Shown: piece after piece, positions 2,209-61,652 of the stretch
Layout of the letters: the number at the start of each line of letters is the position of its first letter
Numbering within the stretch: the first letter of the stretch is position 1
Virus record (IMG/VR): IMGVR_UViG_3300024262_004725
Reading direction: 5' to 3' (one strand)
DNA: 64,000 bases
Origin: an uncultured virus (IMG/VR IMGVR_UViG_3300024262_004725)
Lineage: Duplodnaviria; Heunggongvirae; Uroviricota; Caudoviricetes
The notes under the pieces: generated by a model
Database searches by the model: none
What the model was told of the DNA's origin: nothing
Seen by the model: the letters and a program-made list of their open reading frames with translations, nothing else
Position numbers and translations under genes: made by a program

Positions 2209-2486
2209 ACAATATACTGTAAATACTTTGTTTCAGTACAAAGGTTTACAGCGTATTTGTTTACCATTTTTTAGTTGAAAATAAAATAATAGTTATTAGT
2301 TGTTACTAATGAAAGGGATGTAATGATGATTTGTAGATTTATTTTAGATGTCGAAGCTCCAAAAGATATTGATGATGTTGTAGATATTGATTGGGCATTT
2401 AGTTATTATAGTATGGCAATAGGTCTTGTTGGAGAAGACGCTACGAGTGATGAAATTATGAGTAAGTATATGGAGTTAGTTTAGTT

Positions 2487-9043: not shown

Positions 9044-9117
9044 TGCTCCATCGTCTAGTGGTAGGACGTCAGACTTTGAATCTGGAAACATTGGTTCGAA
9101 TCCATTTGGGGCAGCCA
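9044..9117 (+). tRNA. tRNA-Gln (anticodon TTG)
   Basis: Acceptor stem TGCTCCA/TGGGGCA, anticodon arm TCAGA-CTTTGAA-TCTGG, T-loop TTCGAAT, encoded 3' CCA. Confidence 0.93.
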
Positions 9118-15122: not shown

Positions 15123-15210
15123 ACCTCAGTGGCGGAATGGTAGACGCGACGGACTTAAAATCCGTTTCTCTTAATCGAGAGTGTAGGTTCAAGTCCTATC
15201 TGAGGTACCA
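15123..15210 (+). tRNA. tRNA-Leu (anticodon TAA)
   Basis: Acceptor stem ACCTCAG/CTGAGGT, D-arm GCGGAATGGTAGACGC, anticodon arm ACGGA-CTTAAAA-TCCGT, long variable arm, encoded CCA. Confidence 0.95.
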
Positions 15211-19756: not shown

Positions 19757-20506
19757 ATGGATTTAATTGTTAACGCTCCGTTAAATATAATTGAAAAATA
19801 TACTGCTGAAAATAAATATCAATATCTTTTTGCTTGTTACTTAGATCGACCAGATTATCATGGATGGTTACGTGCATTAAATCGCATGGAATATCCAGTT
19901 GTTTTAGATTTACGTGGTGTAGATTTTGCAGAGATATATGCAGATCATAGATTACGCAAACTTCTTTGGTTTGGTGAATTTGAAGGTAGTATAAAATTTC
20001 AAAAGTTTTTAAAAGCTGTTGTAATATCTCCAGATCAAATTCAATCTTCTTTAGCTATTCTTTCTGGATTAGAAGCTGATATTGAATTATGGATTGTAGA
20101 GAATGGAGATAAAGAAGTTTCTATTCTTACAAAAAATCTTCCTAATATTAGACCTTTTATTGTACGTATTTTATTAGGAAAAAAATTAGAATCTCTTTAT
20201 AAATATGGCAGAACAGGTTTAGTAGATACTTTAGTTAAAATTACAGATTGGGATCATCCTATTGATTTTTCTGATGTAGAATTTCATTTACTTGGTGTAT
20301 GGGAAGGATATAAAGAAGTATTAGGTTATAAAAATTCTATCTTTAAAAGTTTAATTACTTCTTATCCTATTAAATTAGGTTTACAAGGTAGAAGATTAGC
20401 TGAAGATCGTCCATTCTTACCTCCATTAAATTTTCAATATTCACAAGAAACTTTTAATGAATGGACACATAAAAATGTAAGCGAGCTTAGGGAAGTATTA
20501 AAATAA
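19757..20506 (+). CDS. Degenerate TGT-like TIM-barrel protein (tentative)
   Basis: VVLD...FHLLG...KSLITSYPIKLG resembles the HLLG...SxDTS pattern of phage TGT-like proteins. Confidence 0.35.
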   Translation: MDLIVNAPLNIIEKYTAENKYQYLFACYLDRPDYHGWLRALNRMEYPVVLDLRGVDFAEIYADHRLRKLLWFGEFEGSIKFQKFLKAVVISPDQIQSSLAILSGLEADIELWIVENGDKEVSILTKNLPNIRPFIVRILLGKKLESLYKYGRTGLVDTLVKITDWDHPIDFSDVEFHLLGVWEGYKEVLGYKNSIFKSLITSYPIKLGLQGRRLAEDRPFLPPLNFQYSQETFNEWTHKNVSELREVLK

Positions 20507-22860: not shown

Positions 22861-25551
22861 TTGCCCCTTAAATTAAAAGAAAACTTTACTGCTAAAACTC
22901 CTTATGCAGATTGTAATACTTGTCCTTTAAGAGACAATACATTTGTACCTCCTGATGTAACAGAAATAAGAACTAAAGATGGATATTCTACATGTAATGT
23001 TGCATGGGTAGGAAATTATCCAGATGAAGAAGAAGCAAAAGCTGGACAAGTATTTATTGGAGAAGCAGGTAAATTACTTAAGCAGGTTACTCAAGGATTA
23101 AAAAAATTAATTCCTTGGATGGATAAACAGATTTATTTAAATTCTGTTCTCTGTTCTCCACATTCAAATGAAGAAGTAAATGAAGATGCTAGAAATCATT
23201 GTTATAAAGGAGTATGGCATCTTCTTGAAACTTATAAACCAGAACTTATTATTGGAATGGGACCTGAAGGATTAAAAACTACAGATGTATATACAGGAAC
23301 TATTTTAGATAAGCATGGTAGTTATACTAAAGTAAATAGACGATCGGTATTAGATCATGGTAAGAAATTTATCTCGAATATTATTAGTTCTGTTCATCCT
23401 GCCTATGTTGTACGTCCTACTGGAACAAGTTTTTATCAGGAATATGTTGATGGACTTTTTCATGGGATTTCCAATTATTTAAAACCAATTCCAGAACCTG
23501 AATATGAAATTCTTAATACAGTTGAACAAATTACTGCATTAGAAGAATTAATACCAGATAATGTTCCTGTTGCTCTTGATATTGAAACAGCTAATTTGAA
23601 ATTATATGATGAAATTATTTGTATTCAAGTTAGTTCTAAAGCTTTAAATAATAATAAATCTTATATTATTGAATGGCCCGCTAATGTAAAAATGGATTAT
23701 AATTTCTCTACTTTAAAATGGGATATTATATTTCCTGCTGAGACATATGAAGAAACTAAAATATATTATGAAAGAATAAAATCTTTTTTAGAAAATCCTA
23801 AATTTAGATTTATACTTCAAAACGCTAATTTTGATAAACCCCAATTAGGTAGTTTTGGAATTGATATAGAAGTAGAATATGATACTCTTCTTGAAAGTCA
23901 TATTACAAATGAAAATGCAAGAAGTCATTCATTAAAATATCAAGCTAGATTACGTTTAGGATGGCCTGATTGGGATACTCCTATTATGGAGTTTATTAAT
24001 AGGTATGCTAAATCTAAAAAAGAAAAAGCTGTATTTAGATGGACACAAATACCACGTAAAGAATTATATAAATATGCTGCATTTGATTCTCCTGGAACAG
24101 AAGAACTTCATCATATATTTTATGATAAAGAAATGGATGAAGGAGATAAAAATGTTCATGATGTATTTTCTATTCCAGCTCTTAATATGTTCTCAGATAT
24201 TAGGACTAGAGGATTAAGAATAGATGCAGGAAAAACTATTGGATTAGTTGATGACACTAAAAAACTTGCAGCTAAAATATTTGAAGAACGTATAGATCAA
24301 ATAGCATATGATAATGGTTTTGAAACTTTTAATCCTAATAGTCCAAAACAAGTAGCTGAATTATTATATGATAAACTAGAAATATCTCTTCCTATTGAAA
24401 GAGGAAAGGAAGTAAGATCTACTAACAAAAAATTATTTGAACAACTTCCTCAATTAGATATTATTCAAGCTATTAAAGAATATAGAGAAGCTACACATGA
24501 TATTGATGCATATTATTTAAGTATAGCAGGAGATGCTTATGGTGATATTTGTATTCATCCACATTTTGATCTTACTTTACGCACAGGTAGAATTGCTACC
24601 TCCAATCCTGCGATACTTAATGTAAAGAAAAGTTCAAGAGTAGGGGAGATGTTTATCCCTTACTATCCAAATGATTATTGGATGTTAAAAATTGACCAAG
24701 CACAATTTGAATTAAGATTTTTTGCTGGAATAACAGGTGCAGAATCTATGATTGATGCCTTTATGAAAGGTGTTGATGTACATGGTTATTTCGGAGTATT
24801 AATGGATCCTAATTATGAAAAAGCTTATGCATTAAATCCAGATGTAAGAACACGAATTAAGAATGTAGTATTTGGTACTTTATTTAATGCTGGAGATTAT
24901 CAAAATGCAATTTCTGCTACTCCATCAGCTTTACAAGCATTAAGACTTTCAGATCTTTCTTATTATGAACAAGTAGTAACAGATAAGCAAGCTTATGAAT
25001 TTTGGTTCCAAAGTTTAATTCAGGAAATGAAGAAAGTTAGAGAAGCTTTTAATGAACTTTGTCCTGAAGCTGATGAATTTAAAGATACTATTAAAAATGA
25101 AATCTTTGATAAAGGATATATAGAAACTGTTACTGGACGTAAACGACATTGTCCTTTAGTTCCTAATGATAATAAAGCTTTCAAACACTTATTAAATCAA
25201 ATGATTAACTCGCCAGTACAGGGACCTGCGAGTGAAATTAATGTAGCAGCTGCAGTGGATGTGCATAATCATTATGAAAATTCTATGGACGCTTTTGTGG
25301 ATACAACATATCATGATGCAATCTTTGTTGAAGCGGATAAAAACAATTGGGAAGAAGTCTTAACAACAACTACGGAGTATATGACAAGTGCTCCAGCAAG
25401 ATACTTAGGAGATAAATATCCAATATTTAAAGAGGTGCCTTTTGCAGTAGAAGCAGAGATTGGAACTAATTGGAAAAATACAACCAAAGTTTCAAAAATT
25501 GATAACAAATGGGTAGTAGAAAATCCAGATAAGATTGGAATGAAAGTATAA
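22861..25551 (+). CDS. polA: Family A DNA polymerase with N-terminal family-4 UDG-like domain and 3'-5' exonuclease
   Basis: UDG4: CNTCPL, FIGEAG, HPAY. Exonuclease: LDIET, NANFD, YAAFD. Polymerase: TGRI, DQAQFELR, KNVVFG, NSPVQG, HDAI. Confidence 0.92.
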   Translation: MPLKLKENFTAKTPYADCNTCPLRDNTFVPPDVTEIRTKDGYSTCNVAWVGNYPDEEEAKAGQVFIGEAGKLLKQVTQGLKKLIPWMDKQIYLNSVLCSPHSNEEVNEDARNHCYKGVWHLLETYKPELIIGMGPEGLKTTDVYTGTILDKHGSYTKVNRRSVLDHGKKFISNIISSVHPAYVVRPTGTSFYQEYVDGLFHGISNYLKPIPEPEYEILNTVEQITALEELIPDNVPVALDIETANLKLYDEIICIQVSSKALNNNKSYIIEWPANVKMDYNFSTLKWDIIFPAETYEETKIYYERIKSFLENPKFRFILQNANFDKPQLGSFGIDIEVEYDTLLESHITNENARSHSLKYQARLRLGWPDWDTPIMEFINRYAKSKKEKAVFRWTQIPRKELYKYAAFDSPGTEELHHIFYDKEMDEGDKNVHDVFSIPALNMFSDIRTRGLRIDAGKTIGLVDDTKKLAAKIFEERIDQIAYDNGFETFNPNSPKQVAELLYDKLEISLPIERGKEVRSTNKKLFEQLPQLDIIQAIKEYREATHDIDAYYLSIAGDAYGDICIHPHFDLTLRTGRIATSNPAILNVKKSSRVGEMFIPYYPNDYWMLKIDQAQFELRFFAGITGAESMIDAFMKGVDVHGYFGVLMDPNYEKAYALNPDVRTRIKNVVFGTLFNAGDYQNAISATPSALQALRLSDLSYYEQVVTDKQAYEFWFQSLIQEMKKVREAFNELCPEADEFKDTIKNEIFDKGYIETVTGRKRHCPLVPNDNKAFKHLLNQMINSPVQGPASEINVAAAVDVHNHYENSMDAFVDTTYHDAIFVEADKNNWEEVLTTTTEYMTSAPARYLGDKYPIFKEVPFAVEAEIGTNWKNTTKVSKIDNKWVVENPDKIGMKV

Positions 25552-26273: not shown

Positions 26274-26304
26274 GAGCGTATTTCTTTTGATCTACGCTCT
26301 TTTT
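26274..26304 (+). terminator. Rho-independent terminator ending the replication module
   Basis: GAGCGTA...TACGCTC followed by a T-tract. Confidence 0.7.
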
Positions 26305-26332
26305 ATGTCTAAATAAATAGAGTTACAAGGAA

Positions 26333-26378: not shown

Positions 26379-26549
26379 AACATATGACTTGAGGAAGTTT
26401 TGTCATACTTACTAACAATAAACTTAGTTTAATCTATTAGAATTGTTTGGTGGATAAAACTTACTCACTAATGACGGCGTTAAATATTTTTAATTAAGTA
26501 TTTAACTTTCAAAGTTCTCTTGTAGAACGGGAAGGAGGAAAAAAGCAAC

Positions 26550-26756
26550 ATGGCAATGGTACCTTTACTTATCGGTGGCCTTATCGCGCTAGTTGTAGGT
26601 GTTTCTCTCGTTCCGACGATTGTGACTACCGTCAACAACTTGGACACTGGTACAACTCCACAGACTGTGCTTGACTTGGTTGATCTCTTACCGATCATCT
26701 TCGTTGCGTCACTTATCGTGGCCGCAGTGTCTCTGTTCTTCGCACGACGTTCTTAA
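26550..26756 (+). CDS. Putative major capsid protein, spindle-shaped virus (SSV1 VP1-like) two-helix hairpin
   Basis: Two hydrophobic helices flank PTIVTTVNNLDTGTTPQ, with a basic C-terminus. Perfect AAGGAGG RBS (26532-26538), own promoter and terminator, distinct codon usage. Confidence 0.8.
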   Translation: MAMVPLLIGGLIALVVGVSLVPTIVTTVNNLDTGTTPQTVLDLVDLLPIIFVASLIVAAVSLFFARRS

Positions 26757-26819: not shown

Positions 26820-26866
26820 TAGGGTTGGGGAGGTTTTACTTATGAAGCTTTTCCAACCCTATTTTT
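26820..26866 (+). terminator. Rho-independent terminator after the capsid gene
   Basis: TAGGGTTGG...CCAACCCTA followed by TTTTT. Confidence 0.75.
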
Positions 26867-26894
26867 AAATCTAATTAAAGAGAATAAAAATTAC

Positions 26895-29931: not shown

Positions 29932-30831
29932 ATGACAGAAGAAATTAAATTACCCTCAAATCTGCCTAGGAATCCTAATCCCCCAGAAGAAAGACCTACA
30001 ACATCACCTATAACTAGTGAGCCAACTACAGTAGGTGGTGGTGGACCAAATCCTATTGAAGAACAAAAACAATTCTTTAGAGATCCTCCTTCAGTAGGTG
30101 GTGGTGGACCAAATCCTATTGAAGAACAAAAACAATTCTTTAGAGATCCTCCTTCAGTAGGTGGTGGTGGACCAAATCCTATTGAAGAACAAAAACAATT
30201 CTTTAGAGATCCTCCTTCAGTAGGTGGTGGTGGACCAAATCCTATTGAAGAACAAAAACAATTCTTTAGAGATCCTCCTACACCTGATGGCGGGCCTTTA
30301 GAATTAAAGACATCAGATAGAAAACCTTTAGATAATAAATTTGTACCTATTCAATTAGATGCAGAAGAAATTCTGCAAATGAATAGTAATCCATTAGAAA
30401 CAACGGGTATTCCAAATGCTTTAGAAATTAATTCTGCAGATCTTCCTCAATTAGATCAAGATATGAATACTGATTTTGATGAAGAAGCAGATAGAGTTTT
30501 TAGATCTGCTAGAACTGAAGACTTTGAAGCATCTTTAACTTCTTTAGATGATAAAGCTCCAAAAGCAGATAAAAAATCTCCAATAATTAATATTGATGTT
30601 AGTGCTTTAACTGGAGATACAACTAAATTAGCAAAAACAGTTACTGAAAGTAAGAAATTAGAACGTTTTATAAAGAAAGCATCTCTCCCTTCTTTAGTAG
30701 ATGCAAAAAATAGATTAGATCAACTATTAGAATCTAATACTGATGAAAAAGATGATATAAGACATTACAAACTTAATTTGTTAAATGCATTAGCAGATGA
30801 AATTTCATCTAGAAGCCTGAGTGAATTTTAA
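29932..30831 (+). CDS. Pro/Gly-rich repeat protein with C-terminal helical domain
   Basis: Four copies of VGGGGPNPIEEQKQFFRDPP(S/T). Confidence 0.75.
   Translation: MTEEIKLPSNLPRNPNPPEERPTTSPITSEPTTVGGGGPNPIEEQKQFFRDPPSVGGGGPNPIEEQKQFFRDPPSVGGGGPNPIEEQKQFFRDPPSVGGGGPNPIEEQKQFFRDPPTPDGGPLELKTSDRKPLDNKFVPIQLDAEEILQMNSNPLETTGIPNALEINSADLPQLDQDMNTDFDEEADRVFRSARTEDFEASLTSLDDKAPKADKKSPIINIDVSALTGDTTKLAKTVTESKKLERFIKKASLPSLVDAKNRLDQLLESNTDEKDDIRHYKLNLLNALADEISSRSLSEF
30029..30279 (+). repeat. Perfect 63-bp coding tandem repeat, 4 copies
   Basis: Units start at 30029, 30092, 30155 and 30218. Confidence 0.95.
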
Positions 30832-34500: not shown

Positions 34501-35922
34501 CGTCAAAATATAACAGATGATTTAATTAGAAAAGCAGATGATGTATTAGCAAGACGACCTGCACGACCTTCAAAAGCAAGTAATATTGTTAATGCTCGCG
34601 GTATTTCTAAAATTAATGAAATGTTTGATGGTAGTTTAGCTCGTAAAGTAGATGATACTTTAGATGAAGCTGTAGGTAGTGTAACTAGTGTAACTCCTGC
34701 AAGAAGTGTATTACCTCCAGTAGGTGTATTAGCTCCAGAAAGAATTTTTGCTCCAGAAAGAAAATTACCTCCAGTAAGAACAATACCTAGGCCTAAAATT
34801 AAACCTGTTATTTTTCCAGAACCTTTTCCTATAAAATTACCTCCAGCAAAACCTGATCCTGAACCTTTCCTAATACCTATACCTGGGCCAGTTGAGCCAA
34901 GAATTAAAATTAAGCCTGGAGTTTTAGATAGATTAAAAACTAAGCATCCTCCTTTTCCTAAATTAATTTCTCAACCTATAACAAGTCCAATTAATCCTAG
35001 TCCTATTGGGGGAGATGTAACACCTCCAGATACTAAAGGTGCAACTACAGGTTTTCCTACAACTATTGTAAAAACTGATTTTGGAACTGGAACAATAACT
35101 ACAACAGGTAATGGAACTTCAGGACAAACAACTGGAGGTGGAGGAAGTACAGGAGATTCTGGAAGTTCAGGAAGTACTGGAACAGATACAGGAGTTGATA
35201 CAGATACAGGAATAGAAATAGATCCTCAACCAGGACCTGTTGTTATACCTCCTCCAGAAACTATACCTCCACCTGAAGTTGTTCCACCACCTATTGAAGA
35301 AGTTATTCCTCCACCTGAAACAATTCCACCTCCTGAAACAGTACCTCCACCAGTAGAAGAAGGAGATCCTCCACCACAAGAAGATCCACCACCAGTTGAA
35401 GAAATAGATAAAATAATTGAAGAAGATCCTCCTCCACCTCCTCAGGAAGATCCACCACCAGATGAAGGTATATTACCTGCTACAGGTGTATTACCTGAAA
35501 TTATACCTGAGATAATTCCAGAAACAGCAAAGAATAAAAATAAATCTTTACTTATTGATTTAGATGATGATGATAGTAATCATTCTAATCGTAGAAGAAG
35601 AATTACTAATTTACAAGCTGTAAAATTATTCCGTAATGTTACTGGAACTAAAGCTCAATGGACATTAGTAGAAAGAGTACGTCAAGGACCTCGTAGTGGA
35701 TTTAAGTTTATTGATAGTTGGGGATCTTTTAATAAAACTCAATTAATTAGTTCTGGTAATATAAATTCAAAAGCTAAAAATATTTTAAATAGCATTTTCT
35801 CAAAACAAGGAGATCATCCATCTAATGGTGAAGATTTAATCTTAGCATTAATTGCTACTGGTCAAATTCAACCTAATGAAATTGACATGGTTCTTCCTTG
35901 GCCAGTGAAAGTAAGTATATGA
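31531..35922 (+). CDS. Large (1463 aa) coiled-coil and Pro-rich protein, probably virion-associated
   Basis: E/K/R/A-rich N-terminal helix, Gly/Ala-rich middle, and PPPE/EDPPP repeats near the C-terminus. Confidence 0.75.
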   Translation: MTTEASLRKEEQRRHRAAELAAKDARDAKKHADEARVAAEAIAKKTKEDAARKAREEEAKAQARRDRIAADNRRELKERKAQKAAAIAATNARRIREKNNRIKAAKEERERQEREKQANSTSADTNQKQNRENETLKQIIHGGAGQPDETVKELLERTTTPPKERTAKEIRDDALASAAKAKAERTAKAEIERKERFERDQKRREELGIIAGVPLLDSDIKEEVNRQIKAEKELDTAKEGSLSGLVDKGIDEDITSSLKAETNIELREQEITLKDAVADAVAQGFEIGENVTAETIREVLKEHAQSKAFGNLGEGELETLIHAEAERQGKELTQSKAFNRNTTGQGETSPEQEALEDQIQGLAKAKRDFEQNLGQSKALVGEGEISAFDNVLFEGETAPQVTASSAISAGGFIPSKAGDNSSVDTLVSTSAQEIDRPVLNAAGEQVSTEKGLMVPTSTGGVIFIPEGQYTKSTKGKERFFVKLPESQQKAFKDDQRKVIQQGNLATAPGKIIGAISAAGETTVGGALFVGSTIPGTQENISALKNFRENFDKARAEGGSVAGALRKAEQETQLPRGVKFGLEAVLDPTVLLSGGTIALVKTGAAGGIKAGVSKGVRVTAKSIASDAIPERQIGEVFQDLGSAALRRTSSGLSGLKTTATTRVGTTAKSISDKAAIITGRQPGSRKLIAREIEPGITQLQPASIREIVLEKIGTSSSLIGNKGAAGTFKTSRIIKASVTKPTIAIGKGIADTLPAQAISKTVKVGIKGARSTPKLIRQAKHGLTEKTIRRNAILEAKALGIDAGSDLHASVVSELVSSALEAAGRGVKAKAITTSRKLKLGTKSKGSSVVRKGIDPVTGLRKITSPITSPAKKLLALTKSTAKKTLDVEARVKNLDDSIKNSESKLAATRKQLREFKEKGVTGPRAERFEATAVKRIDSLETDIAKFAQRRSDELISLDELSFSRSLLDDKGDDFIKEGFLDTSTFKSVTPRQNITDDLIRKADDVLARRPARPSKASNIVNARGISKINEMFDGSLARKVDDTLDEAVGSVTSVTPARSVLPPVGVLAPERIFAPERKLPPVRTIPRPKIKPVIFPEPFPIKLPPAKPDPEPFLIPIPGPVEPRIKIKPGVLDRLKTKHPPFPKLISQPITSPINPSPIGGDVTPPDTKGATTGFPTTIVKTDFGTGTITTTGNGTSGQTTGGGGSTGDSGSSGSTGTDTGVDTDTGIEIDPQPGPVVIPPPETIPPPEVVPPPIEEVIPPPETIPPPETVPPPVEEGDPPPQEDPPPVEEIDKIIEEDPPPPPQEDPPPDEGILPATGVLPEIIPEIIPETAKNKNKSLLIDLDDDDSNHSNRRRRITNLQAVKLFRNVTGTKAQWTLVERVRQGPRSGFKFIDSWGSFNKTQLISSGNINSKAKNILNSIFSKQGDHPSNGEDLILALIATGQIQPNEIDMVLPWPVKVSI

Positions 35923-36950
35923 AAAAAAGATTAACATTAATACTATTCATTATAGTATTTGCAATAATAACTTCTCCAGGAATGTTTCAACAACCCAAAG
36001 CGCATGCTGCAATAGCTTCAGTTCCAAGTAGTATGCTAGTAATTGGTACAGAAACATATGCTTTTAGACATATTCTAGAAACTGATGATGCACTATTTAT
36101 GGCTCCTTATTATATAAATAGTGATGATTGGGTAGGATATGATGGTATAGATATAATTGCTCAATTAGAAAATCATAGTGGAACAATAATAAAGCAAAAA
36201 ACATTAGAACATCTTGATGGTGGAATTATTGGATTTTATATTAATAATTCTGAATTTGCTGCAAATTTTACTTGGCCAGGAAGTGAAAATGCAAGAATAA
36301 TTCTTAGAGCTAATCCAGCAGTTTTTTTAGCTGATCCTTCAATAGATAATACAGGAGATCAAGGTTTAGTTGATGCAACAAAAGAAGGTACAGGATCTAA
36401 TGATGAATGGATAGGCACTGACAATCATTCAGATACTGTAGATGATATGAGATCTAGATTACCTGGAATGTTAAATGCATTAGGTAACGAAGATAGTATT
36501 GATTATTTAGAAGGAGATAAAATAAATCTTGCAGGTGGAGGCTTAATTGTAGAAGCTTTTACATGGATTGTAACTATTGCACCTGAAGCATTTATTCTTG
36601 GTAGTTTAACATTAAATCCTGACTTTAGTGCAACAGGAACAATTGCTTTACAACTTGAATTAGATAGTTTAGATAATACTGCTATAGATTCAGTTACTGG
36701 ACTAGCTACCGGTTTAGGATTTAATCCTTCTATATTTGGTTTAATTGTTATTATTTTAATTAGTGCTCCTGTTATTCTAATGTTAAGAAATATTACAGAG
36801 GATAATGCATTTGCTTTCGCTTCAATAAGCGGTTTACTTGTTTGGTGGACGTCATTAGGTTTACTTTCTGTAGCATTAATAATGACAATATCACTAATAC
36901 TATTTGCAATTCTCGGTATATGGTTATGGAATAGAATACCTACAGGTTAA
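35898..36950 (+). CDS. Secreted, membrane-anchored protein (signal peptide plus C-terminal TM helices)
   Basis: MKKRLTLILFIIVFAII...AHA signal peptide (likely start at the second Met), acidic ectodomain, about 3 C-terminal TM segments. Confidence 0.75.
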   Translation: MASESKYMKKRLTLILFIIVFAIITSPGMFQQPKAHAAIASVPSSMLVIGTETYAFRHILETDDALFMAPYYINSDDWVGYDGIDIIAQLENHSGTIIKQKTLEHLDGGIIGFYINNSEFAANFTWPGSENARIILRANPAVFLADPSIDNTGDQGLVDATKEGTGSNDEWIGTDNHSDTVDDMRSRLPGMLNALGNEDSIDYLEGDKINLAGGGLIVEAFTWIVTIAPEAFILGSLTLNPDFSATGTIALQLELDSLDNTAIDSVTGLATGLGFNPSIFGLIVIILISAPVILMLRNITEDNAFAFASISGLLVWWTSLGLLSVALIMTISLILFAILGIWLWNRIPTG

Positions 36951-36961
36951 AGGAATTTATT

Positions 36962-37207
36962 ATGCCAGAAATTTTTACAACTAAAAAATTAATAGGAATA
37001 GTAGAAAGTGATGAAAACTTTTCAGATTTTATTACTCGTTTATCTAAAATGTCAACAAAAGAATTAGGTAAGCTCGTAGGAGCTACTATGATGTTTGACT
37101 TACAATTAGGTATGCAAATACAAACACCAGTACAAAAAGAATTTGTTAGAAAAAATTTAATGTTAATGAAAGAAGCTAAAAATATTTTAGAAGAACGAAG
37201 GAGTTAA
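36962..37207 (+). CDS. Small helical protein, paralog of 37210-37458
   Basis: Shares RLSKMSTKELGKL with the next gene. Confidence 0.7.
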   Translation: MPEIFTTKKLIGIVESDENFSDFITRLSKMSTKELGKLVGATMMFDLQLGMQIQTPVQKEFVRKNLMLMKEAKNILEERRS

Positions 37208-37209
37208 TT

Positions 37210-37458
37210 ATGCCCGAAAATTTTAGTCAAGCTAAGATTTTTGACATCTTAGAAGATGAAAATAAATATGCAGATTTTGTTGATAGACTTTCAAAAATGT
37301 CAACAAAAGAATTAGGCAAATTACATCAAGAATTAAATAAATTCATTTTTGCTATTATTCAAGCATATCAATCACCTAAAATTATAGCTATGGATAAAAG
37401 ATTAAAAGAATTATTAGAAGAAGTTCGTAATTTATCAATAGAAAGAAATTCTAACTAA
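37210..37458 (+). CDS. Small helical protein, paralog of 36962-37207
   Basis: Shares RLSKMSTKELGKL with the previous gene. Confidence 0.7.
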   Translation: MPENFSQAKIFDILEDENKYADFVDRLSKMSTKELGKLHQELNKFIFAIIQAYQSPKIIAMDKRLKELLEEVRNLSIERNSN

Positions 37459-37970: not shown

Positions 37971-40391
37971 ATGACGATTAGTACAAAACTTTGGGCAATA
38001 ACATTAATAGTTATAGCTTTAACATTAGGTTTATACTCTAGTGTTTTTGCAGACCCTGGAGACTATGATGTAGAAGGTCGTACTATCATTCTAGATGGCG
38101 ATGATGATACTTCTATTGGAGCTACTACAGATGATATAATTACATTTGATGTTAGCGGAACTACAATAGTTACTTTAAGTACAACAACGCTAACTGTAGG
38201 TGTTAATACTTTTCAATTAAATCCATCTACTAATCCAAGTATATTAGGTGCAGATGCAGATGGAGTATTAACTATTTCATCTAATTCTAGTACAACTGGT
38301 GGAAATATTAGATTATTTGGAAATACACATTCTACACAAGCCTATGATTTTGAATATAGAACAAATACTACAGTAAAATTTGATTTTGATGATAGCTCTA
38401 ATATCTTTTCATATGCCCCAGGAATAGCTTTAATTGTAGGATCTTCAAATCAAGATGAACCAGTTTCAGGAATAACTCCTAAGTTTCAATTTTTAGGCAC
38501 AGATAATAATACTAGTTGGGCAACAATGGGACGTTGGTCAGCAGATCCTAGAGGTCCATCTTTAGTATTTATAAAAGGTAGAGATCCTAATATTAGTGGT
38601 ATTGATAGTGTAGCAGATGGAGATATATTAGGTATTCAACGTTGGTATGCAGAAGATGGAGCAAATTTTCCAACTCCTGCAGCTACTTTTTTTGCAGTTG
38701 TAGACGATTCTACACCTTCTGATGGCTCAATAGGAACTTCTTTTATTTTTAATGTAGATAATGGTGCTGGAGGGGGTTTAAGTACAATATTAAAATTAAA
38801 ACCTAAAGGTACATTAGAAATAACAAATAATGATACGGATGGAGATGCATTAGCATTAGCTCTACAAAATGAACAATCAGTAGGATCTGATAATGATAAT
38901 TTAGAACTTCGTTTTGAAATGCAAGATAATGATGGAGGTGTAATTGATTTTGTAGGTTCTCTTGAATATTTATGGAGATCAGCTGGTGCAGGTTCTGAAG
39001 ATTCAACAGGTAGAGTATATTACAGAAGATCAGGTGCGCAAGAACTTGCATTAGATTTTGGAACAATTGATAGTTCAGGAAATCGTGCTTTTAAAGTTAA
39101 TCCATCATCTCTAGATAATGATTTTATTGTTAATACTTCTGGTGGTGTAGCATTTGATATTACAGGAAATACTGGAATTGCTAATTTTAATGCTAATGCA
39201 GTAAATAATATAGGAAGTGTAAATACTGATATTGATAGTGATGATTTTGATTTAGATCAGAATCTTTATCAAACTATTCAACATGAAATTATTCAGCCTA
39301 TTGGGGCTGAAATGTATACAGAATCTAATGCTGCAAATGCCAGTTCTGAAACAAATTCAACAGGTAGCTGGACTACAAATGTTGACGCACTCTTATCTTC
39401 AGATAATACTATATTCTATGATGGTTCTTATTCAATTAAAATGCAGGCTACAGGAAATAACGGACGTACTAACTGGGGTTTTTCTGTAACAAGTGGTTAT
39501 GAATATCATATTTCTTTTTGGCTGTATGTTACAATTAATAATGCACGTCTAGGTATTTATGAATCGCCTACTTCAGTTGGTAGTCTATTTAATTTTGGAG
39601 ATGAAAGCGGTACAGTAGTAGCAGAATCAGTTTGGAAATATTATTCGGGAGTAGTTACTGCACATGAAACAGGAACAAGGTATGTAAGATTTGAAGAATA
39701 TAGTCCTAGCGACAATACTATTCTATACATTGATGATTTCAATATTGAACAAGTAAGTACTGTAGAAATTGGGGATCTTGAAGTTGATGGTAATATAAGA
39801 CTCCAACAAGGAGATCTTCGTCTAGATGAAGATGGATCAAATATCTGGTTTGGAGAATATGGTAACGCTGCTATTTATTATACTGATGATTTAGATGCTT
39901 TAGTAATTGATGTAACAACAGGTGATTTAGATGTAGAATCTGATAACGTCACTATGAATGCTAATCAAGTAGCTTTCAATGTTGATACTCATTTAAATAT
40001 GGATGATTCAGATATTGTTAATAATTTCTATTCTTATGATGAAGTATCTACATTAGCTGGATCAGAATCAGTATCTCAATATTTCAGTACTACAGATGGT
40101 ATGAATTTTTATACTGTTTGGGTTTTAACTGTAGACCAAGGTAATGTAAATGGCGCTAGTTTTAAACATGGATGGGTAGGTGGATTTAATAATGGAGGTA
40201 GTTTAACATCTGCATTAAGTGGAACTTATGCTAGTGGAGGAACTGAAGCTGCTGATATTGGAATAACCCTTTTTGCAGTTGATAGTGATACTTTAAGAGT
40301 TACCATAACAAATAATGGATCGGATCCATGGGCTACTACTGCTGTTTATTATGAAGCCCGTGCAACTCGTACAGCTCCACTTCTCGATTAA
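37971..40391 (+). CDS. Secreted beta-rich fibre/adhesin-like protein with carbohydrate-binding-like domain
   Basis: Signal peptide ending VFA; D/T/S/G-rich; segment YDGSYSIKM...YHISFW...LYIDDF. Confidence 0.65.
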   Translation: MTISTKLWAITLIVIALTLGLYSSVFADPGDYDVEGRTIILDGDDDTSIGATTDDIITFDVSGTTIVTLSTTTLTVGVNTFQLNPSTNPSILGADADGVLTISSNSSTTGGNIRLFGNTHSTQAYDFEYRTNTTVKFDFDDSSNIFSYAPGIALIVGSSNQDEPVSGITPKFQFLGTDNNTSWATMGRWSADPRGPSLVFIKGRDPNISGIDSVADGDILGIQRWYAEDGANFPTPAATFFAVVDDSTPSDGSIGTSFIFNVDNGAGGGLSTILKLKPKGTLEITNNDTDGDALALALQNEQSVGSDNDNLELRFEMQDNDGGVIDFVGSLEYLWRSAGAGSEDSTGRVYYRRSGAQELALDFGTIDSSGNRAFKVNPSSLDNDFIVNTSGGVAFDITGNTGIANFNANAVNNIGSVNTDIDSDDFDLDQNLYQTIQHEIIQPIGAEMYTESNAANASSETNSTGSWTTNVDALLSSDNTIFYDGSYSIKMQATGNNGRTNWGFSVTSGYEYHISFWLYVTINNARLGIYESPTSVGSLFNFGDESGTVVAESVWKYYSGVVTAHETGTRYVRFEEYSPSDNTILYIDDFNIEQVSTVEIGDLEVDGNIRLQQGDLRLDEDGSNIWFGEYGNAAIYYTDDLDALVIDVTTGDLDVESDNVTMNANQVAFNVDTHLNMDDSDIVNNFYSYDEVSTLAGSESVSQYFSTTDGMNFYTVWVLTVDQGNVNGASFKHGWVGGFNNGGSLTSALSGTYASGGTEAADIGITLFAVDSDTLRVTITNNGSDPWATTAVYYEARATRTAPLLD

Positions 40392-41660: not shown

Positions 41661-44612
41661 GTGACTACTTTTCAAAAAACATTAGTACCTATTTTTGTAG
41701 TAATAGGTATTGTACTTAGTATACTTGCAGTTAAAGCCAATGAATTTGGAGTAGTAGACCCAGATATTACACCGGACTATTTTTGGTCTTTTAACTATGA
41801 ATATTTTAATCCTACAGGAGATGGTATCCCTGAATTAATAGCAGGGGATAATAATCTTACAGCATTAGGTCCAAATATTCAAGTAATTCCAGAAACAGAG
41901 TCACAAACTTATGGGACCATATTAACTCATGATGGAGGTTCATTTATAAATGAATTTCAAACTGAAGGGTCTTTTAGTACAGAATACTCACCTGGGTTTT
42001 CATTTATAATACCTTTATACTTTAATACATTACCTACTAGTGATTATACTATTATAGGTCATGGAGAAACAGTAGCACCTAAATTAGGATGGAGATTAAG
42101 ATATTCTGCAGCATCTTCTACAGTATATTTTGAAAGTTCACCAAATGGCTCAATAGCAGTAGCCACTGATGTAGTTAGTTCTGCAACCTTTACTACAGGT
42201 ACATGGTATTCTATTGGATTTGCTTCAGATGGATCAACAGGAGTAACTTTAACTGTAAATAATTTAATAGACACAGGTACAACTCAAGCAGGAGGTCCTT
42301 ATACAAATCCAACTTCACCAGTACCTTTATTTGTATTTGGAGATATCCCATCAACTTTTGTAGATGTTTTAATTTCTTATATTGCATTTTATAATTCAAC
42401 ATTAACATCTGGACAGTTAACTGCAGCAGTAAATGATATTGCTCCTGATAATACTTTAGATTACTCTTTTGAAATCGATGTAGAAGTTGTAAATTCAAGT
42501 ACTACTGCTAAAACTAATTTCCAATTACCTATTGAAATTAGTACTCAAAATTTAATTAATTATAGTTATATGGAAGCGGATTTAAATGATGTAGTTATTA
42601 TTGATCTTTCTGGAGAAGACTATGATAACTTAATTACATTAGAAGGAGTTTCAACAACATCCCCTGTAAATACTTCAGAATATGCATTTGCATTAATTCC
42701 TAATTTGCAGGGTAGTTCAACATTATCTTTAGATATTAGATCAGGATTATCATCTAGTACACTACCTTACTCTAATGCTCGAGGATTTAGTGTAACCAAT
42801 GGTAATGATTGGATTGCAGGAGAAGATAATACAACTATCCAATTTGAACAAACTAATTTAGGTTTAAGTGTAAATGCAGAAGTAATAGAATTCCCTGATC
42901 AAATATTCCCCACAAATAAATCAGGATTAATAGCTGCATATACTTTTGAAGGGTCAACTTCAACAGAAGCATTAGAAGATAAAGCTATAAATGGTTTAGA
43001 TATTACTACTTGTAATGCTACAGTGGGTACTATTGATAATGCAGCACCTCCAACAGGTTACTCACAACAAAATCTAAAAGCTTTTATAGGCACTAATACT
43101 TGTCATACTTCAGATATAACTTATGGAATTTGGCCAGATATTTCTACTAGTCCATTGGCTACAGCAGGTACTGAAGTTTCAATAGTTATGGAATTAGGCG
43201 ACAATATAATTTCCAATTTACCTACAGGAGATTATACTGTTCTTTACTTAGCTTTAGATAATGCTTTTTCAGGATATAGTCGCTGGGCAGTTGGTTTTAC
43301 AGGCACGTCAGGAACTTCAAGACCTTGGTTTGAATATACTGATAATTCATATGTAATAAATAGATATGAAGCATCTAATTGTTTTATGAGTGGTGTAAAT
43401 ACTGAATCTTTTTATTTTTATAGAAATCAAGCTACAAATGAAACAGAAATATGGTGGGGATCAACTCTTTGTACAGCTAGTTGGGTAAGTGGTAATGGAA
43501 CTGGGCCTGCTGTAGAAGATACATTTTCAGATCATGCTTTATGGTTTTTTGGAGATGATCTAGGTGGGCAAATTGCAACATCGTCATTAACTGTAGATGA
43601 AATTTCAATATGGAATAGAGAACTAACTACAGATGAACATGCTCAGGTTATGCATAATCCAGTACCAGGAGATACATATTCTTGGTTTCTAAGAAAAAGT
43701 ACAAAAAGTTTAGAAAGAAATAATTTTCTTTTTGGAGTTAATAGTGCAGAAGAATTAGTAATTGGGATTAATGATAGCCCTTACATAACAGCTGCAATTG
43801 AACAACCTAATCAAAAAAATACATATAGTGCAATATTATTAGGGAATAATATACAATTATGGGAAGGTAGTGGGCAATTAATTAGCACAACTACTTCTCC
43901 TTCTTGGTTTCTTACATCTGATGATTTAATTTATTTAGGTGGGGGAGATACTTTAACATTTTCAGATAGTACAATAGGTAATATTTATGGAGGGGATTCC
44001 GCAGTTAATATTTTCCACTCTGCTGAAATAAGAGATGATCAAGGATTATCTACAGAAGCAACTGCTTTTGAATTAGATTTAGCACCTGGAAATTGGACTC
44101 AAACACAAGAAGGGTCTGCAGCTAATAATTGGACATGGACAGGTACTTCATCTGAATTATCTATTGAAAATCAAGCATTAACTTACCAAATTCAAACAGA
44201 TCAAACAGATATAACAGTAATTACATCTGGAATTATTCCATTAGATGCATTTGAAATTATACCTACACCAGATACTTCAGTAAGTATTATTGGAGATATT
44301 GCTGCAATACCAGTAACAGTAACTCCAAATCCAAATGTACCATTATCATTATTTATTACAGATGCTGCAACAAGTATAGGAGTTGAACCTGCTGCAATAT
44401 GGTTTATTGTAGTATATGCAATTGCTATTGTATTTGCAACAGCATTTATGAAAACGATTCAAGGAGCTTTATTCGCAATCCTCTTAATGGACTTAATAGT
44501 TCTTGCAGGTAGTATGTCAGGATTATATGCATACTGGATGACAGGATTAACGATTGTAATGACAATGGGCATCTATGCAACAGGTGTACTTAGAAAAGGC
44601 GGATTAATATGA
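41661..44612 (+). CDS. Large adhesin-like protein with LamG/ConA-like domains and C-terminal TM anchor
   Basis: Signal peptide; TWYSIGF, IAFYNSTLT and VDEISIWNRELT (LamG-type motifs); about 3 C-terminal TM helices. Confidence 0.75.
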   Translation: MTTFQKTLVPIFVVIGIVLSILAVKANEFGVVDPDITPDYFWSFNYEYFNPTGDGIPELIAGDNNLTALGPNIQVIPETESQTYGTILTHDGGSFINEFQTEGSFSTEYSPGFSFIIPLYFNTLPTSDYTIIGHGETVAPKLGWRLRYSAASSTVYFESSPNGSIAVATDVVSSATFTTGTWYSIGFASDGSTGVTLTVNNLIDTGTTQAGGPYTNPTSPVPLFVFGDIPSTFVDVLISYIAFYNSTLTSGQLTAAVNDIAPDNTLDYSFEIDVEVVNSSTTAKTNFQLPIEISTQNLINYSYMEADLNDVVIIDLSGEDYDNLITLEGVSTTSPVNTSEYAFALIPNLQGSSTLSLDIRSGLSSSTLPYSNARGFSVTNGNDWIAGEDNTTIQFEQTNLGLSVNAEVIEFPDQIFPTNKSGLIAAYTFEGSTSTEALEDKAINGLDITTCNATVGTIDNAAPPTGYSQQNLKAFIGTNTCHTSDITYGIWPDISTSPLATAGTEVSIVMELGDNIISNLPTGDYTVLYLALDNAFSGYSRWAVGFTGTSGTSRPWFEYTDNSYVINRYEASNCFMSGVNTESFYFYRNQATNETEIWWGSTLCTASWVSGNGTGPAVEDTFSDHALWFFGDDLGGQIATSSLTVDEISIWNRELTTDEHAQVMHNPVPGDTYSWFLRKSTKSLERNNFLFGVNSAEELVIGINDSPYITAAIEQPNQKNTYSAILLGNNIQLWEGSGQLISTTTSPSWFLTSDDLIYLGGGDTLTFSDSTIGNIYGGDSAVNIFHSAEIRDDQGLSTEATAFELDLAPGNWTQTQEGSAANNWTWTGTSSELSIENQALTYQIQTDQTDITVITSGIIPLDAFEIIPTPDTSVSIIGDIAAIPVTVTPNPNVPLSLFITDAATSIGVEPAAIWFIVVYAIAIVFATAFMKTIQGALFAILLMDLIVLAGSMSGLYAYWMTGLTIVMTMGIYATGVLRKGGLI

Positions 44613-44674: not shown

Positions 44675-45076
44675 ATGCCAATTAGATTTTATCTTTGGTT
44701 ATCTTTTCTTTGGTTAGGAATGATAATTCTTTTCAATCTTGTGAATTTCAACTTTGCAACTAGCGGTACAATTACAGCTACTGCAAATGCTGATATTGAT
44801 ACATTATTTTTAATGAATCAATTCAGTACATTTACAATTCCTATTATTGATATTGGATTACCAATACCTCACCCTAGTTTATTTTCTACATTAGCTAAAA
44901 TGTTAATTTGGGAATACCCTTTCTTTGCTGGCCATTGGAATTTAGTTAGAATTTTCTTCTTACTTCCAATTACTTTCGCAGCTACTTTCGTATTCATTCA
45001 AGCTTTAGCACCAGTTATTACTTCAATTGTTTCCGCAGTTGGAGACTTTATAGGAAGGTTAATAAACATTTTCTAA
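44675..45076 (+). CDS. Membrane protein
   Basis: Hydrophobic N- and C-terminal segments. Confidence 0.65.
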   Translation: MPIRFYLWLSFLWLGMIILFNLVNFNFATSGTITATANADIDTLFLMNQFSTFTIPIIDIGLPIPHPSLFSTLAKMLIWEYPFFAGHWNLVRIFFLLPITFAATFVFIQALAPVITSIVSAVGDFIGRLINIF

Positions 45077-45359
45077 TGCCATCACTTGCAGGTAAAATAT
45101 TAAGTAATGATGTAAATGGATTAACTACAGTAGTAGCACAAGTAGATAGAGAAGTTGGGAGAGTTCGTCACGGAGAAAATACAGGATTAAAAATTGGACG
45201 CCCACGTTCAGATGAATTATTATTCGTAATTCAAGATTTAGATTCCATAACTCTTTATAAAAAACTAGAAGCTTTAGAAGATTATTATGGACAAGATAAT
45301 GTAATAGTACTTGAATCTACTTAATTTTATTATATTATAAATAGCAAAAGAGGTATAAA

Positions 45360-45866
45360 TTGGACCCAGTCGCACTTGTTTATGTAATGTTTTCTATGCT
45401 ACTTCTCGGAGGTGGTGTAGTAGTTACTGCTCTATATTATAAAAGAAATTTCTTTAAAAAGAAAATTAAATGTTATTTTTATACAAGAGAAAATGCTGTA
45501 GAAGAACAATTACTTAAACCAAATTCAGATAACCAATTTGAATGGAATGGTGGTAACTACATGTTTGTTCGAGATGCTGTTAAATTAGGTAAAACAGTAA
45601 TTGGAGAAGGTGTACCAACTCTAACTTTCATTGAAGATAATCCGTATCCTATTCTTTTTGTACAAAATTTTGCTGCTGATATTGGAGAAATTACAGCTAG
45701 ACAAATTGCAGCTGATTTTGATGACAAAATGGCAAGAGAATTAGGTGCAGTAACTACAATTGAAGAAGATTCTGAAGATTTAAAACAATTAAAGACTTAT
45801 ATTGTTACAATTGGATTACTTCTTGCTATGATTATGTTAATTGGCTTCTGGGTTATTGGTTCCTAA
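45360..45866 (+). CDS. Membrane protein with TM helices at both ends
   Basis: GAGG RBS, TTG start, two TM segments; close upstream of the ATPase. Confidence 0.65.
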   Translation: MDPVALVYVMFSMLLLGGGVVVTALYYKRNFFKKKIKCYFYTRENAVEEQLLKPNSDNQFEWNGGNYMFVRDAVKLGKTVIGEGVPTLTFIEDNPYPILFVQNFAADIGEITARQIAADFDDKMARELGAVTTIEEDSEDLKQLKTYIVTIGLLLAMIMLIGFWVIGS

Positions 45867-46360
45867 TGGCTAAAAAAGAATTATCATTTGGAAAAGTTAC
45901 TCCACTAAGTTCAAACGAACAAATTAGTCAAAGAGAATCTCCTACTGAATTTGCATCTGATGAAGATAATATTTTTGGAGGTACTGGATCAATACCAGAA
46001 GATAATCGAGATGATGAACAAGGAGATAGCTTTGGTACTTTTCAAGATGGTTCATTAAATTCAGATCAAGGAATCTTATCTACTTTATTAGATTCTGGAA
46101 GTGGTAATGATGGCCAAAGTGAATGGATAAAACAACTTTTAACTGATGAAAATTTACTGTTAAAAACAGATGTTCCAGAAAGAGCAATTCCAGCAATTGC
46201 AAAAGCAATTGTACTAGCTAATAAATATAGATCAAAAAGATTATGGGATTATATTATTTATTATTTAAAGTTAAGAATTTCACGTGAACGTGAAGGTAGA
46301 AAAGAATTAGTTGCAATGGCTTTAAGAACGAAAGGCCATGACGAATTAGACGACTTTTAA
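45866..46360 (+). CDS. Hypothetical protein adjacent to the ATPase
   Basis: Acidic N-terminus, then LKLRISREREGRKELV; abuts the ATPase start. Confidence 0.6.
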   Translation: MAKKELSFGKVTPLSSNEQISQRESPTEFASDEDNIFGGTGSIPEDNRDDEQGDSFGTFQDGSLNSDQGILSTLLDSGSGNDGQSEWIKQLLTDENLLLKTDVPERAIPAIAKAIVLANKYRSKRLWDYIIYYLKLRISREREGRKELVAMALRTKGHDELDDF

Positions 46361-47044
46361 ATGATAATATCAATTGAAGGTAAAATGGGTTCAGGAAAAA
46401 CCCTTACCACTACAATGCTAGGTTTTGATGCATTTAAGCAAAATCGAAAAGTACTTGCAAATTATAAATTAAATTTTCCTTATGAAGTATTTGGACCTGA
46501 AGATTTTTATAGAATTAATGACCAAGATTTAGAACTTAATAATTGTATGGTACTTGCTGATGAAGGTTATTTAATGATGGACTCTAGAAATAGTATGTCT
46601 ATTATGAATAGATTAGTAAACTACTGGTCAGTACAAACAAGAAAAAGAAATGTAGATTTAGTAATTGCTACACATGAATTTACTAGATTAGATAAAAGGA
46701 TTAGATCTGCAGTTGATTTAAGAATTGGTTGTAGATATGAATTAAGAGGTTCAGAAATTGCATATAAGCAAAATAAAGCTGGACATCTTATTATGGATCC
46801 AGAAACAGGGAACCCTAAAAAAGCTAGAGATAAATATGGAAATCCAATATTTATTAAAAAGGCTTTAGATGAAATGGGTAAAGTAGTTACGTTAAGAGGA
46901 GAACCAAAATTAAGATTAATGTTTAGAAATATGATGAAAGGTACTGTTAATCTTCAATATATTAACCCAATTCCTTTCATGAAATATTATGATACAGAAG
47001 AAATTATTTCAATTCCTGAAGGAGTAATGAACAGAGGTTTATAA
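46361..47044 (+). CDS. Zot-like P-loop ATPase (virion assembly/extrusion)
   Basis: Walker A GKMGSGKT, VLANY, Walker B VLADEG, DSR, QTRK and LDKRIR. Confidence 0.82.
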   Translation: MIISIEGKMGSGKTLTTTMLGFDAFKQNRKVLANYKLNFPYEVFGPEDFYRINDQDLELNNCMVLADEGYLMMDSRNSMSIMNRLVNYWSVQTRKRNVDLVIATHEFTRLDKRIRSAVDLRIGCRYELRGSEIAYKQNKAGHLIMDPETGNPKKARDKYGNPIFIKKALDEMGKVVTLRGEPKLRLMFRNMMKGTVNLQYINPIPFMKYYDTEEIISIPEGVMNRGL

Positions 47045-58525: not shown

Positions 58526-58540
58526 CTAAAGGAATTTAAT

Positions 58541-61651: not shown

Positions 61652-61652
61652 A

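Follow-up and report, generated by a model that had tools for sequence, protein, structure and literature searches.

We analysed a stretch of 64,000 nucleotides from an uncultured virus (IMG/VR record IMGVR_UViG_3300024262_004725; hereafter the window) and found that it encodes a 68-amino-acid (aa) protein (26550..26756, + strand; MAMVPLLIGG...FFARRS) that is homologous to VP1, the capsid protein of fuselloviruses and spindle-shaped viruses, by sequence, by profile and by predicted structure. The gene belongs to a conserved module with a soluble ATPase whose closest named relatives are from archaeal viruses. It lies next to a replication module of phage type, and genes typical of tailed phages were not detectable. 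The explanation that we favour, with a probability of about 0.62, is that the window derives from a large (> 64 kb) non-tailed double-stranded DNA (dsDNA) virus that has a VP1-type hairpin capsid, combines archaeal-type morphogenesis with phage-type replication and probably infects a bacterium. Among sequencing runs one DNA run matched, labelled as a subsurface metagenome and possibly the sample of origin; no RNA run was listed.

When compared with all PDB chains by phmmer, the 68-aa protein matched VP1 of Sulfolobus spindle-shaped virus (SSV) 19 (7xdi_A) with E = 2.3e-4, the next match being at E = 2.6. The match to 7xdi_A reached E 8e-7 with a profile of four sequences and E 1.8e-10 with a family profile of 40 sequences. 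The protein also matched phrog_11172 ("virion structural protein") with E 4.5e-5, as did 34 of 40 family members, and this family is described in a preprint as including SSV1 VP1 (bioRxiv 10.64898/2026.09.15.751708). An AlphaFold2 model based on the 40-sequence alignment had a predicted local distance difference test score (pLDDT) of 91.9 and showed a kinked helical hairpin with helices at residues 3-29 and 38-67; transmembrane (TM) prediction likewise gave the two hydrophobic segments noted earlier, starting at residues 1 and 38. A comparison of this predicted model with solved PDB structures in Foldseek again placed the VP1 chain 7xdi_A on top (TM-score 0.79/0.78, root-mean-square deviation 2.2 Å over 68 columns, 32% identity, probability 1.00, E = 1.6e-2), and all remaining PDB matches had E >= 5.7 and TM-scores below 0.6. 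The BFVD search with the model returned two unnamed proteins (35% identity) at ranks 1 and 2 and a fusellovirus VP3-like protein at rank 3, and no close tailed-phage protein. The aligned prolines P22 and P48 were near-invariant across the family. The resemblance to VP1 including its prolines, which a preliminary description of this DNA had pointed out, was therefore borne out, and both the profile search and the structural comparison that it had proposed gave matches. The protein thus shows the two-helix form, the similarity to a characterised member and the fold of the VP1-type capsid family.

When 1.84 billion cluster representatives were searched exhaustively with HMMER, 127 belonged to the family at E <= 1e-3 (19 even at E <= 1e-10), and because of these 127 matching representatives the gene is not a chance open reading frame (ORF). 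None of ten representatives examined carried an informative name. Other searches with the capsid protein returned little: a word-based homologue search found a single cluster, 99% identical, and tblastn against a phage collection gave only weak matches (E 0.4-5), namely the VP1 genes of four SSVs and one unrelated phage. A second, weak match of the capsid profile within the window (59058-59261, E 8e-4) spans the second helix only and was not counted as a paralogue. Two kinds of extended family members were also seen. A second capsid paralogue in a related locus (L051:1372-1773) and representative P0128 carry a T/V-rich insertion of about 65 residues between the hydrophobic helices, and 10 of the 127 representatives share a C-terminal extension with a YxNNLD motif.

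The 68-aa ORF on the + strand is real, although its first five residues had been omitted when it was quoted earlier. A perfect AAGGAGG Shine-Dalgarno sequence (26532..26538, +) lies 11 nt 5' of the ATG, and a terminator consisting of a 19-bp hairpin and a U-run (26820..26868, +; -25.8 kcal/mol, z -5.8) follows the gene, both as first described. Another terminator of hairpin and U-run (26274..26305, +; -17.9 kcal/mol, z -7.6) ends the upstream replication operon. The capsid gene is a monocistronic island, with flanking gaps of 306 nt and 138 nt in a genome that is otherwise tightly packed. The claim that the gene has its own promoter could not be confirmed: in a search for sigma-70-like sites in the 210 nt 5' of the gene, the best site scored 8.5 of 12, a value that 70% of random windows of the same locus also reached, so that no sigma-70 promoter is detectable there. 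In an alignment of 11 regions upstream of capsid genes, the conserved part was the ribosome-binding site only, (G/A)AAGGAGGTAA, an element that also precedes the capsid genes of relatives. That the 68-aa protein is the major capsid protein is suggested by its homology, by its stand-alone transcription unit and by the strength of its ribosome-binding site. An excess of terminator-like sites in the window (17 versus 6.9 expected) was dropped as an argument because most of the sites lie on the gene-free strand. The capsid gene is overlapped by a slightly longer antisense ORF of 72 aa (26480-26698, -), and naive calling of the longest ORF selects the antisense frame over the capsid gene, in the window and its relatives alike.

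Relatives of this locus came from an IMG/VR record (L001), from 12 metagenome contigs (L004-L015) and, via the ATPase, from three further IMG/VR loci (L049-L051). The capsid proteins of L004-L015 were 54-68% identical to that of the window. In L001, L006, L011, L013 and L015 the gene immediately 5' of the capsid gene encodes a family A polymerase fused to uracil-DNA glycosylase (UDG-PolA). The Zot-like ATPase is conserved in L004, L006, L008, L014 and L049-L051, and in L004, L006, L008, L014 and L051 no more than about 2.5 kb separate it from the capsid gene. Six more window proteins encoded in the block at 35.9-46.4 kb (350, 806, 983, 133, 168 and 164 aa) also have homologues in relatives. 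Since the order polymerase-then-capsid recurs in five independent contigs and the linkage is conserved, the association of the capsid gene represents a conserved module and not a misassembly. Two tandem capsid genes are present in L001 and in L006. Two other candidates were discarded, L002 as a spurious match on an overlapping frame in a tailed phage and L003 as a distant polymerase with no capsid homologue.

The largest relative is an IMG/VR record of 109,607 bp (G002, loci L053-L058, 82% complete according to CheckV), of which L049 is a part. It carries a VP1-like gene (E 3.7e-17) and the ATPase. Among the products of its 113 ORFs of 110 aa or longer are UDG-PolA, a family B polymerase of protein-primed type, helicases of the SNF2 and UvrD types, Rad52-type, RusA and TROVE proteins, an ATP-dependent ligase and glycosyltransferases. 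The two polymerase genes lie about 1 kb apart, the UDG-fused family A enzyme at L056:8294-10624 and the family B enzyme downstream of it at L056:11604-13271. The same genome encodes a full QueC/D/E/F and FolE set, and its radical-SAM gene at L055:18071-19915 contains an insertion resembling an intein. Among 2.9 million IMG/VR contigs, L001 and L051 were the only lineage members with a capsid gene that were found in addition to this 109.6-kb record, and scans of viral contigs with a single ATPase or polymerase protein gave no match. In two relatives the capsid gene is split by group I introns (Rfam RF00028; L010:286-481, 86.6 bits, and L014:8265-8550, 76.4 bits), and in a third a NUMOD3 homing-endonuclease-like gene adjoins it (L012:101-583). 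By a rough pattern, read-through of such insertions is suspected in 7 of the 127 family representatives.

Terminase, portal and HK97 capsid genes were found neither in the window, where Pfam was applied to 42 + 67 ORFs, PHROGs to the 42 larger ones and NCBIfam to 33, nor in the 109.6-kb relative, where Pfam was applied to 113 ORFs and PHROGs to the 86 that Pfam had left unmatched; these scans relied on sequence profiles within these two genomes. The scan of the contig that had been proposed earlier thus detected none of the hallmarks of Caudoviricetes, i.e. HK97-fold capsid, large terminase subunit and portal, in either of them.

The second gene linking the window to archaeal viruses encodes a soluble Zot/pI-like morphogenesis ATPase of 227 aa that has no TM segment (46361..47044, +; Pfam Zot 6.2e-6, phrog_20922 4.7e-12). 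Its tblastn search against the phage collection returned eight matching records. The top match was the ATPase of the Lokiarchaeota virus WyrdV1 (E 2e-15, 31% identity over 81% of the query), a product annotated as "AAA+ ATPase related to morphogenesis (pI) proteins", followed by a region of the Odinarchaeal Muninn virus (2e-13), and inovirus Zot/pI proteins matched at 6e-5 or weaker. The corresponding phmmer values were 6e-20 for WyrdV1 and 8.5e-19 for Muninn virus. The gene order of WyrdV1 comprises two capsid genes, an adhesin gene, small genes and the ATPase. According to a preprint on wyrdviruses, which proposes an extrusion-like assembly, a conserved block of five genes separates the adhesin from an ATPase without a TM segment. 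The window has the same order, with a 983-aa protein (41661..44612, +) that is predicted to be anchored by one N-terminal and two C-terminal TM segments, four small genes (44675..46360, +; 133, 82, 168 and 164 aa, two of them membrane proteins) and the TM-less ATPase. Three of these small genes (133, 168 and 164 aa) have homologues in L004, L006, L008, L012 or L051. The 983-aa protein is a candidate adhesin by its position, which is as in WyrdV1, and by a homologue with a ConA-like lectin domain (L008:97-1068). The window thus shares with wyrdviruses a TM-less pI-like AAA+ ATPase in one module with a putative adhesin. A His1-like capsid similarity was not seen, and the capsid-family profile found no WyrdV1 or Muninn virus protein at E <= 1.

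The genes around the capsid gene suggest a bacterial host without proving it, and we consider it likely that the host is indeed a bacterium. The preliminary description had drawn the same conclusion from expression signals, and these grounds fail: a sigma-70 promoter is not detectable, and a Shine-Dalgarno sequence does not distinguish the domains because WyrdV1 and Muninn virus use it at least as strongly. The conclusion itself remains the better-supported one on other grounds, namely the tRNAs, the LuxR/GerE regulators, the phage-type genes, and the introns and a fibre domain in relatives. The tRNA-Gln(UUG) of the window (9044..9117, +) reads U1-A72, G2-C71, G10, G73 and U34-U35-G36-A37. These elements are described as belonging to the bacterial glutamine identity set, together with G3-C70 and U38 (PMC9976931), at which the window tRNA departs from the set with C3-G70 and A38. 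Bacterial GatCAB is described as recognising U1-A72, whereas tRNA-Gln of Methanothermobacter has A1-U72 and is read by GatDE (PMC2811023, PMC2943598). In blastn searches of the phage collection both tRNAs gave full-length matches, the tRNA-Gln to tRNAs in 153 records and the tRNA-Leu(UAA) (15123..15210, +) to tRNAs in 42 records, at identities of up to 78-80%. The organism and host names listed for these records, a tally of the commonest ones, were all bacterial, with archaea and archaeal viruses absent. Matching the host by tRNA, another check proposed at the outset, therefore led to bacterial names only, among those listed.

The module of PolA, SNF2 helicase, Sak4, DUF669 and Cas4-type nuclease is phage-like, and the polymerase matched 1154 records, all at less than 60% identity and with bacteriophages only among the names listed. 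Two adjacent genes for LuxR/GerE-type helix-turn-helix regulators (9145-9471 and 9464-9763, +; Pfam GerE 1.5e-8 and 6.7e-14) and a T4 gp30.3-like protein also favour a bacterial host, as do the RusA, Rad52-type and TROVE proteins of the 109.6-kb relative and the group I introns and NUMOD3 gene at the capsid genes of relatives. A 611-aa virion protein of L014 contains a domain that matched 38 records, all from cyanophages, and in each of the 38 the match (34-48% identity) is to a tail fibre. The 806-aa protein of the window is a homologue of this protein's family but has itself no match to cyanophage fibres. The motifs GGTG/GTGA were enriched 5.8-6.7 fold in WyrdV1 and Muninn virus versus 0.7-1.7 fold in the window and G002 (GGTG 0.9 in both), a weak difference resting on two archaeal genomes. 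Two further markers were tried and given up. AAGG and TAAG are enriched in Muninn virus as well, so that a Shine-Dalgarno shifted towards these words does not mark bacteria, and an encoded CCA end of the tRNAs was dropped because 20 of 27 tRNAs of an archaeal metagenome-assembled genome (MAG) have one.

Several of our observations weigh against a bacterial host and would fit a virus with the same capsid role in an archaeon (e.g. a low-GC Asgard, DPANN or Bathyarchaeia host). It would then be a further large spindle-shaped virus of archaea, with tRNAs and a bacteriophage-like replication module that it had acquired. Both hallmark genes have named relatives in archaeal viruses only, the ATPase being nearest to WyrdV1 and Muninn virus and the capsid protein nearest to SSVs, and the order of adhesin, small genes and ATPase is as in wyrdviruses. 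With about 30% GC, the window also comes near the Lokiarchaeal virus WyrdV1, which has 28.3%. Sites of AAGGAGG type are used by two archaeal viruses also, the 210 nt 5' of the capsid gene gave no detectable sigma-70 promoter, and the CCA end of tRNAs is common in the archaeal MAG mentioned above. The purely bacterial names among the tRNA matches come from a biased test because the phage collection holds few archaeal viruses. The Atlas neighbours of a DegT aminotransferase in the window are all bacterial, in a library that is dominated by bacteria, so they say little. Large archaeal spindle viruses with separate "enzymatic arms" have moreover already been described (PMC9894754). The only match among 185,579 species genomes (one each) was a contig binned in a Bathyarchaeia MAG (L016 in G001), whose capsid protein is 42% identical to that of the window and falls into another subgroup. 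This link comes from binning alone; the MAG contained no spacer-like match to L016 and no match to the Zot family. No tRNA-Gln was among the 30 sequences fetched of its 31 tRNA matches, and none of its tRNAs was more than 69% (Gln) or 60% (Leu) identical to those of the window, which is a weak test. The tRNA-Gln of the window with U1-A72 and G73 instead of the GatDE-read A1-U72, the lack of archaeal-virus tRNAs among the names listed for the tRNA matches (153 and 42 records), the GerE regulators and the fibre domain common to a relative and cyanophages all argue against an archaeal host, and TFB, MCM, PCNA or a family B polymerase were not found in the window by Pfam. We therefore regard an archaeal host as unlikely, and the wider capsid family may well span both domains.

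The remaining alternatives concern the virion. The protein resembling VP1 might be an abundant membrane protein of a virus that has an icosahedral shell with an internal membrane, built from a double-jelly-roll or another undetected capsid protein, and whose ATPase packages DNA. The fold of the ATPase leaves room for this: the top PDB match of its AlphaFold2 model was the packaging ATPase B204 of Sulfolobus turreted icosahedral virus (E 3.8e-7), and the model matched B204 and Neisseria Zot about equally, with TM-scores below 0.55. Because the model is poor (pLDDT 62) and B204 and Zot are matched alike, the fold does not settle between extrusion and DNA packaging, and a role of the ATPase in extrusion is not established. 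The many small membrane proteins and a genome of 64 to 110 kb, which is large compared with those of known spindle viruses, would also suit an icosahedral virus, and double-jelly-roll capsid proteins are often missed by sequence profiles. The sequence of the ATPase is nearer to Zot, pI and wyrdvirus ATPases, however, and the homology to VP1 spans the whole protein. No non-membrane protein of 250-450 aa is conserved in the lineage; a 309-aa protein encoded 3' of the ATPase has no homologue in relatives and is charged and rich in lysine and glutamate. Such an icosahedral virus seems very improbable to us. Least probable of all is a tailed phage with its head and tail genes outside the window, in which the 68-aa product would serve in the membrane, for instance as a holin or exclusion factor. 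The window ends inside thyX, so that the genome is longer and genes past 64 kb are unseen, which counts against our interpretation. The replication module is typical of tailed phages, and tail-fibre-type domains occur in relatives. Against a tailed phage stand the lack of detectable terminase, portal and HK97 capsid genes in 64 kb and in the 82% complete relative of 109.6 kb, and the linkage of the capsid gene to the ATPase and membrane-protein module in at least five contigs. The lineage is also almost absent from IMG/VR, where scans with the capsid protein gave one true locus (L001).

If the favoured explanation of a non-tailed virus with a VP1-type capsid holds, the virus would join an "archaeal" morphogenetic module to a replication and expression module of bacteriophage type. 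By analogy with fuselloviruses and wyrdviruses, the capsid protein might be made abundantly from its own transcription unit and insert into the cell membrane. A capsid of helical strands could then form around the DNA with the aid of the soluble pI/Zot-like ATPase, the conserved membrane proteins and the large putative adhesin. The resulting capsid would be spindle-shaped, rod-shaped or pleomorphic, the spindle or rod form being suggested by homology, and the virus would leave the cell by budding or extrusion and not by lysis.

Fuselloviridae such as SSV1 and SSV19 (7xdi) share with the window the two-helix hydrophobic hairpin with conserved prolines, at 32% identity over the structural alignment. 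The window protein differs in lacking an N-terminal extension before the first helix, the match starting at residue 14-16 of the solved chain. The window genome is at least 64 kb long, whereas the matching SSV records measure 15.1-15.5 kb. VP2, VP3, an integrase or a B251-type gene was not recognised in the window, its polymerase is of family A and its host is probably bacterial. The genome of about 15 kb and the core genes of Fuselloviridae are thus not found here, and PHROGs matched no fusellovirus family except that of the capsid. Inoviruses (Tubulavirales) likewise possess an ATPase of the Zot/pI family and small hydrophobic coat proteins. Their genomes are single-stranded and the matching records about 5-7 kb long, and their pI has a TM domain, in contrast to the soluble ATPase and the genome of at least 64 kb described here; a rolling-circle Rep was not matched in the window by Pfam or PHROGs. 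WyrdV1 and Muninn virus resemble the window in their soluble pI-like ATPase, the order of capsid gene(s), adhesin, small genes and ATPase, and low GC content. They differ in genome size (12.7 and 15.6 kb) and in their His1-like capsids, which the profile of the window family does not detect. Zn-finger proteins are numerous in them, a TFB is present, and the polymerase is either a protein-primed enzyme of family B or lacking, whereas the window encodes PolA, tRNAs and GerE regulators.

IME1 of Dehalococcoides is described in a preprint as an integrative element of 21-28 kb with a pI-like ATPase and SSV1-VP1-like proteins, and is proposed there to represent budding, probably filamentous, bacterial viruses (bioRxiv 10.64898/2026.09.15.751708, October 2026). 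Going by this description, IME1 and the window have in common the pI-like ATPase, small hydrophobic proteins that best match SSV1 VP1/phrog_11172, the bacterial setting and the lack of tailed-phage hallmarks. IME1 differs in its integration by a tyrosine recombinase, its primase-helicase and its reported restriction to Chloroflexota. The window, for its part, is at least 64 kb long and brings a PolA replisome of its own along with tRNAs and genes of nucleotide metabolism; neither an integrase nor a primase-helicase family gave a match in it in the Pfam, PHROGs and NCBIfam scans. Large archaeal spindle viruses are described as reaching 72.6 kb (tepeuvirus), as having an "enzymatic arm" and family B polymerases and, in some cases, as carrying ThyX, QueCDEF and Nrd (PMC9894754). 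Compared by that description, they are similar to the window and its relatives in having structural and enzymatic genome parts and ThyX/Nrd/Que genes, and dissimilar in their RNA-primed family B polymerases and their archaeal hosts assigned from CRISPR spacers.

In the literature we found no lineage that combines a VP1-like capsid gene with PolA or with genomes of 64-110 kb. The parts are of known kind; their combination, the genome size and the probable host are new. On balance the evidence leans towards an unrecognised lineage of large (64 to > 110 kb) non-tailed bacterial dsDNA viruses whose virions would consist of the capsid protein, and depend on the pI-like ATPase, that have hitherto been taken as the signature of spindle-shaped viruses specific to archaea. 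Should this be true, a whole class of large bacterial viruses would have been overlooked because it lacks the usual hallmark genes. Genomes of more than 100 kb would exceed the largest named spindle-virus genome given in one paper, 72.6 kb (PMC9894754). Spindle-shaped viruses are a textbook example of an archaea-specific group, a picture that would change if a bacterial host were confirmed, and the spindle-virus capsid architecture would then span both prokaryotic domains. If the family also includes archaeal members, of which the contig binned in the Bathyarchaeia MAG may be one, it would have arisen before the two domains separated or else have moved from one to the other. This would open the question whether this type of capsid is older than the divergence of Bacteria and Archaea.

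All called genes of the window are on the + strand, with a GC content of 26-38%, about 30% overall. The first 26 kb hold the replication and expression module with SNF2 helicase, Sak4-like AAA_24 protein, DUF669 single-strand-binding protein, Cas4-type nuclease, MazG, DUF4326, RNase H and the DNA polymerase of family A to which UDG and 3'-5' exonuclease domains are fused (22861..25551, +; Pfam) and whose gene immediately precedes the capsid gene in five relatives. The two tRNAs, the two LuxR/GerE regulators and the T4 gp30.3-like protein are also encoded in this part, and Rfam detected nothing in the window beyond the two tRNAs. The region from 26.5 to 47 kb is almost without database matches; besides the capsid protein and the Zot/pI-like ATPase it encodes numerous membrane proteins and large proteins of 1463, 806 and 983 aa. 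Within it are a 350-aa protein with five TM segments that is conserved in the lineage (35898..36950, +; L008:1406-2653, 9.7e-9) and the 806-aa protein (37971..40391, +). The latter begins with a TM segment and is a candidate for a role in the virion or in host recognition; it is homologous to L004:3143-4669 (1.5e-14) and had no match in the phage collection. A tail-fibre-type domain is present in L004:3143-4669 and in L014:2568-4400. Sequence searches of the PDB with the 1463-, 601- and 309-aa proteins and the ATPase gave no match, and an Atlas search with the 1463-aa protein gave nothing over 0.82. Between 51 and 64 kb lie the gene for a TSCPD-domain ribonucleotide reductase, a cluster for surface glycans and the beginning of thyX, within which the right end of the window falls. 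The glycan cluster (55056-62885) encodes a 600-aa protein for which six TM segments are predicted, a protein of the O-antigen ligase family (Wzy_C), GtrA, an NAD-dependent epimerase and the DegT aminotransferase, and could serve the modification of the host surface or the glycosylation of virions.

A conserved protein of about 250-270 aa and unknown function (phrog_19058) is encoded in the window (19757-20506) and in relatives (L001:5055-5861, L006:6048-6851, L054:19039-19773), where its gene lies just upstream of the polymerase among genes for 7-deazaguanine synthesis. From these neighbours it might be a DNA-modifying transglycosylase; Que genes were not detected in the window itself. Several repeats were also seen. 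Near the left end (682-864) are about seven copies of a partly palindromic 21-nt motif (GTGAAAnnTnnCACAATCCAA) with a spacing of 23-32 nt, which may be a replication origin or an operator array, and more repeats of the TAGTTATTA type precede early genes at 1245-3030. Four perfect tandem units of 63 bp (30029-30279, 100% identical) lie inside the ORF at 29932-30831 and encode a repeated PPSVGGGGPNPIEEQKQFFRD segment within a 299-aa protein of unknown function. Two paralogous small genes stand side by side at 36962-37207 and 37210-37458 (81 and 82 aa), and an identical stretch of 20 nt is found just 5' of the start codons of the genes starting at 59269 and 59578 (region 59249-59577).

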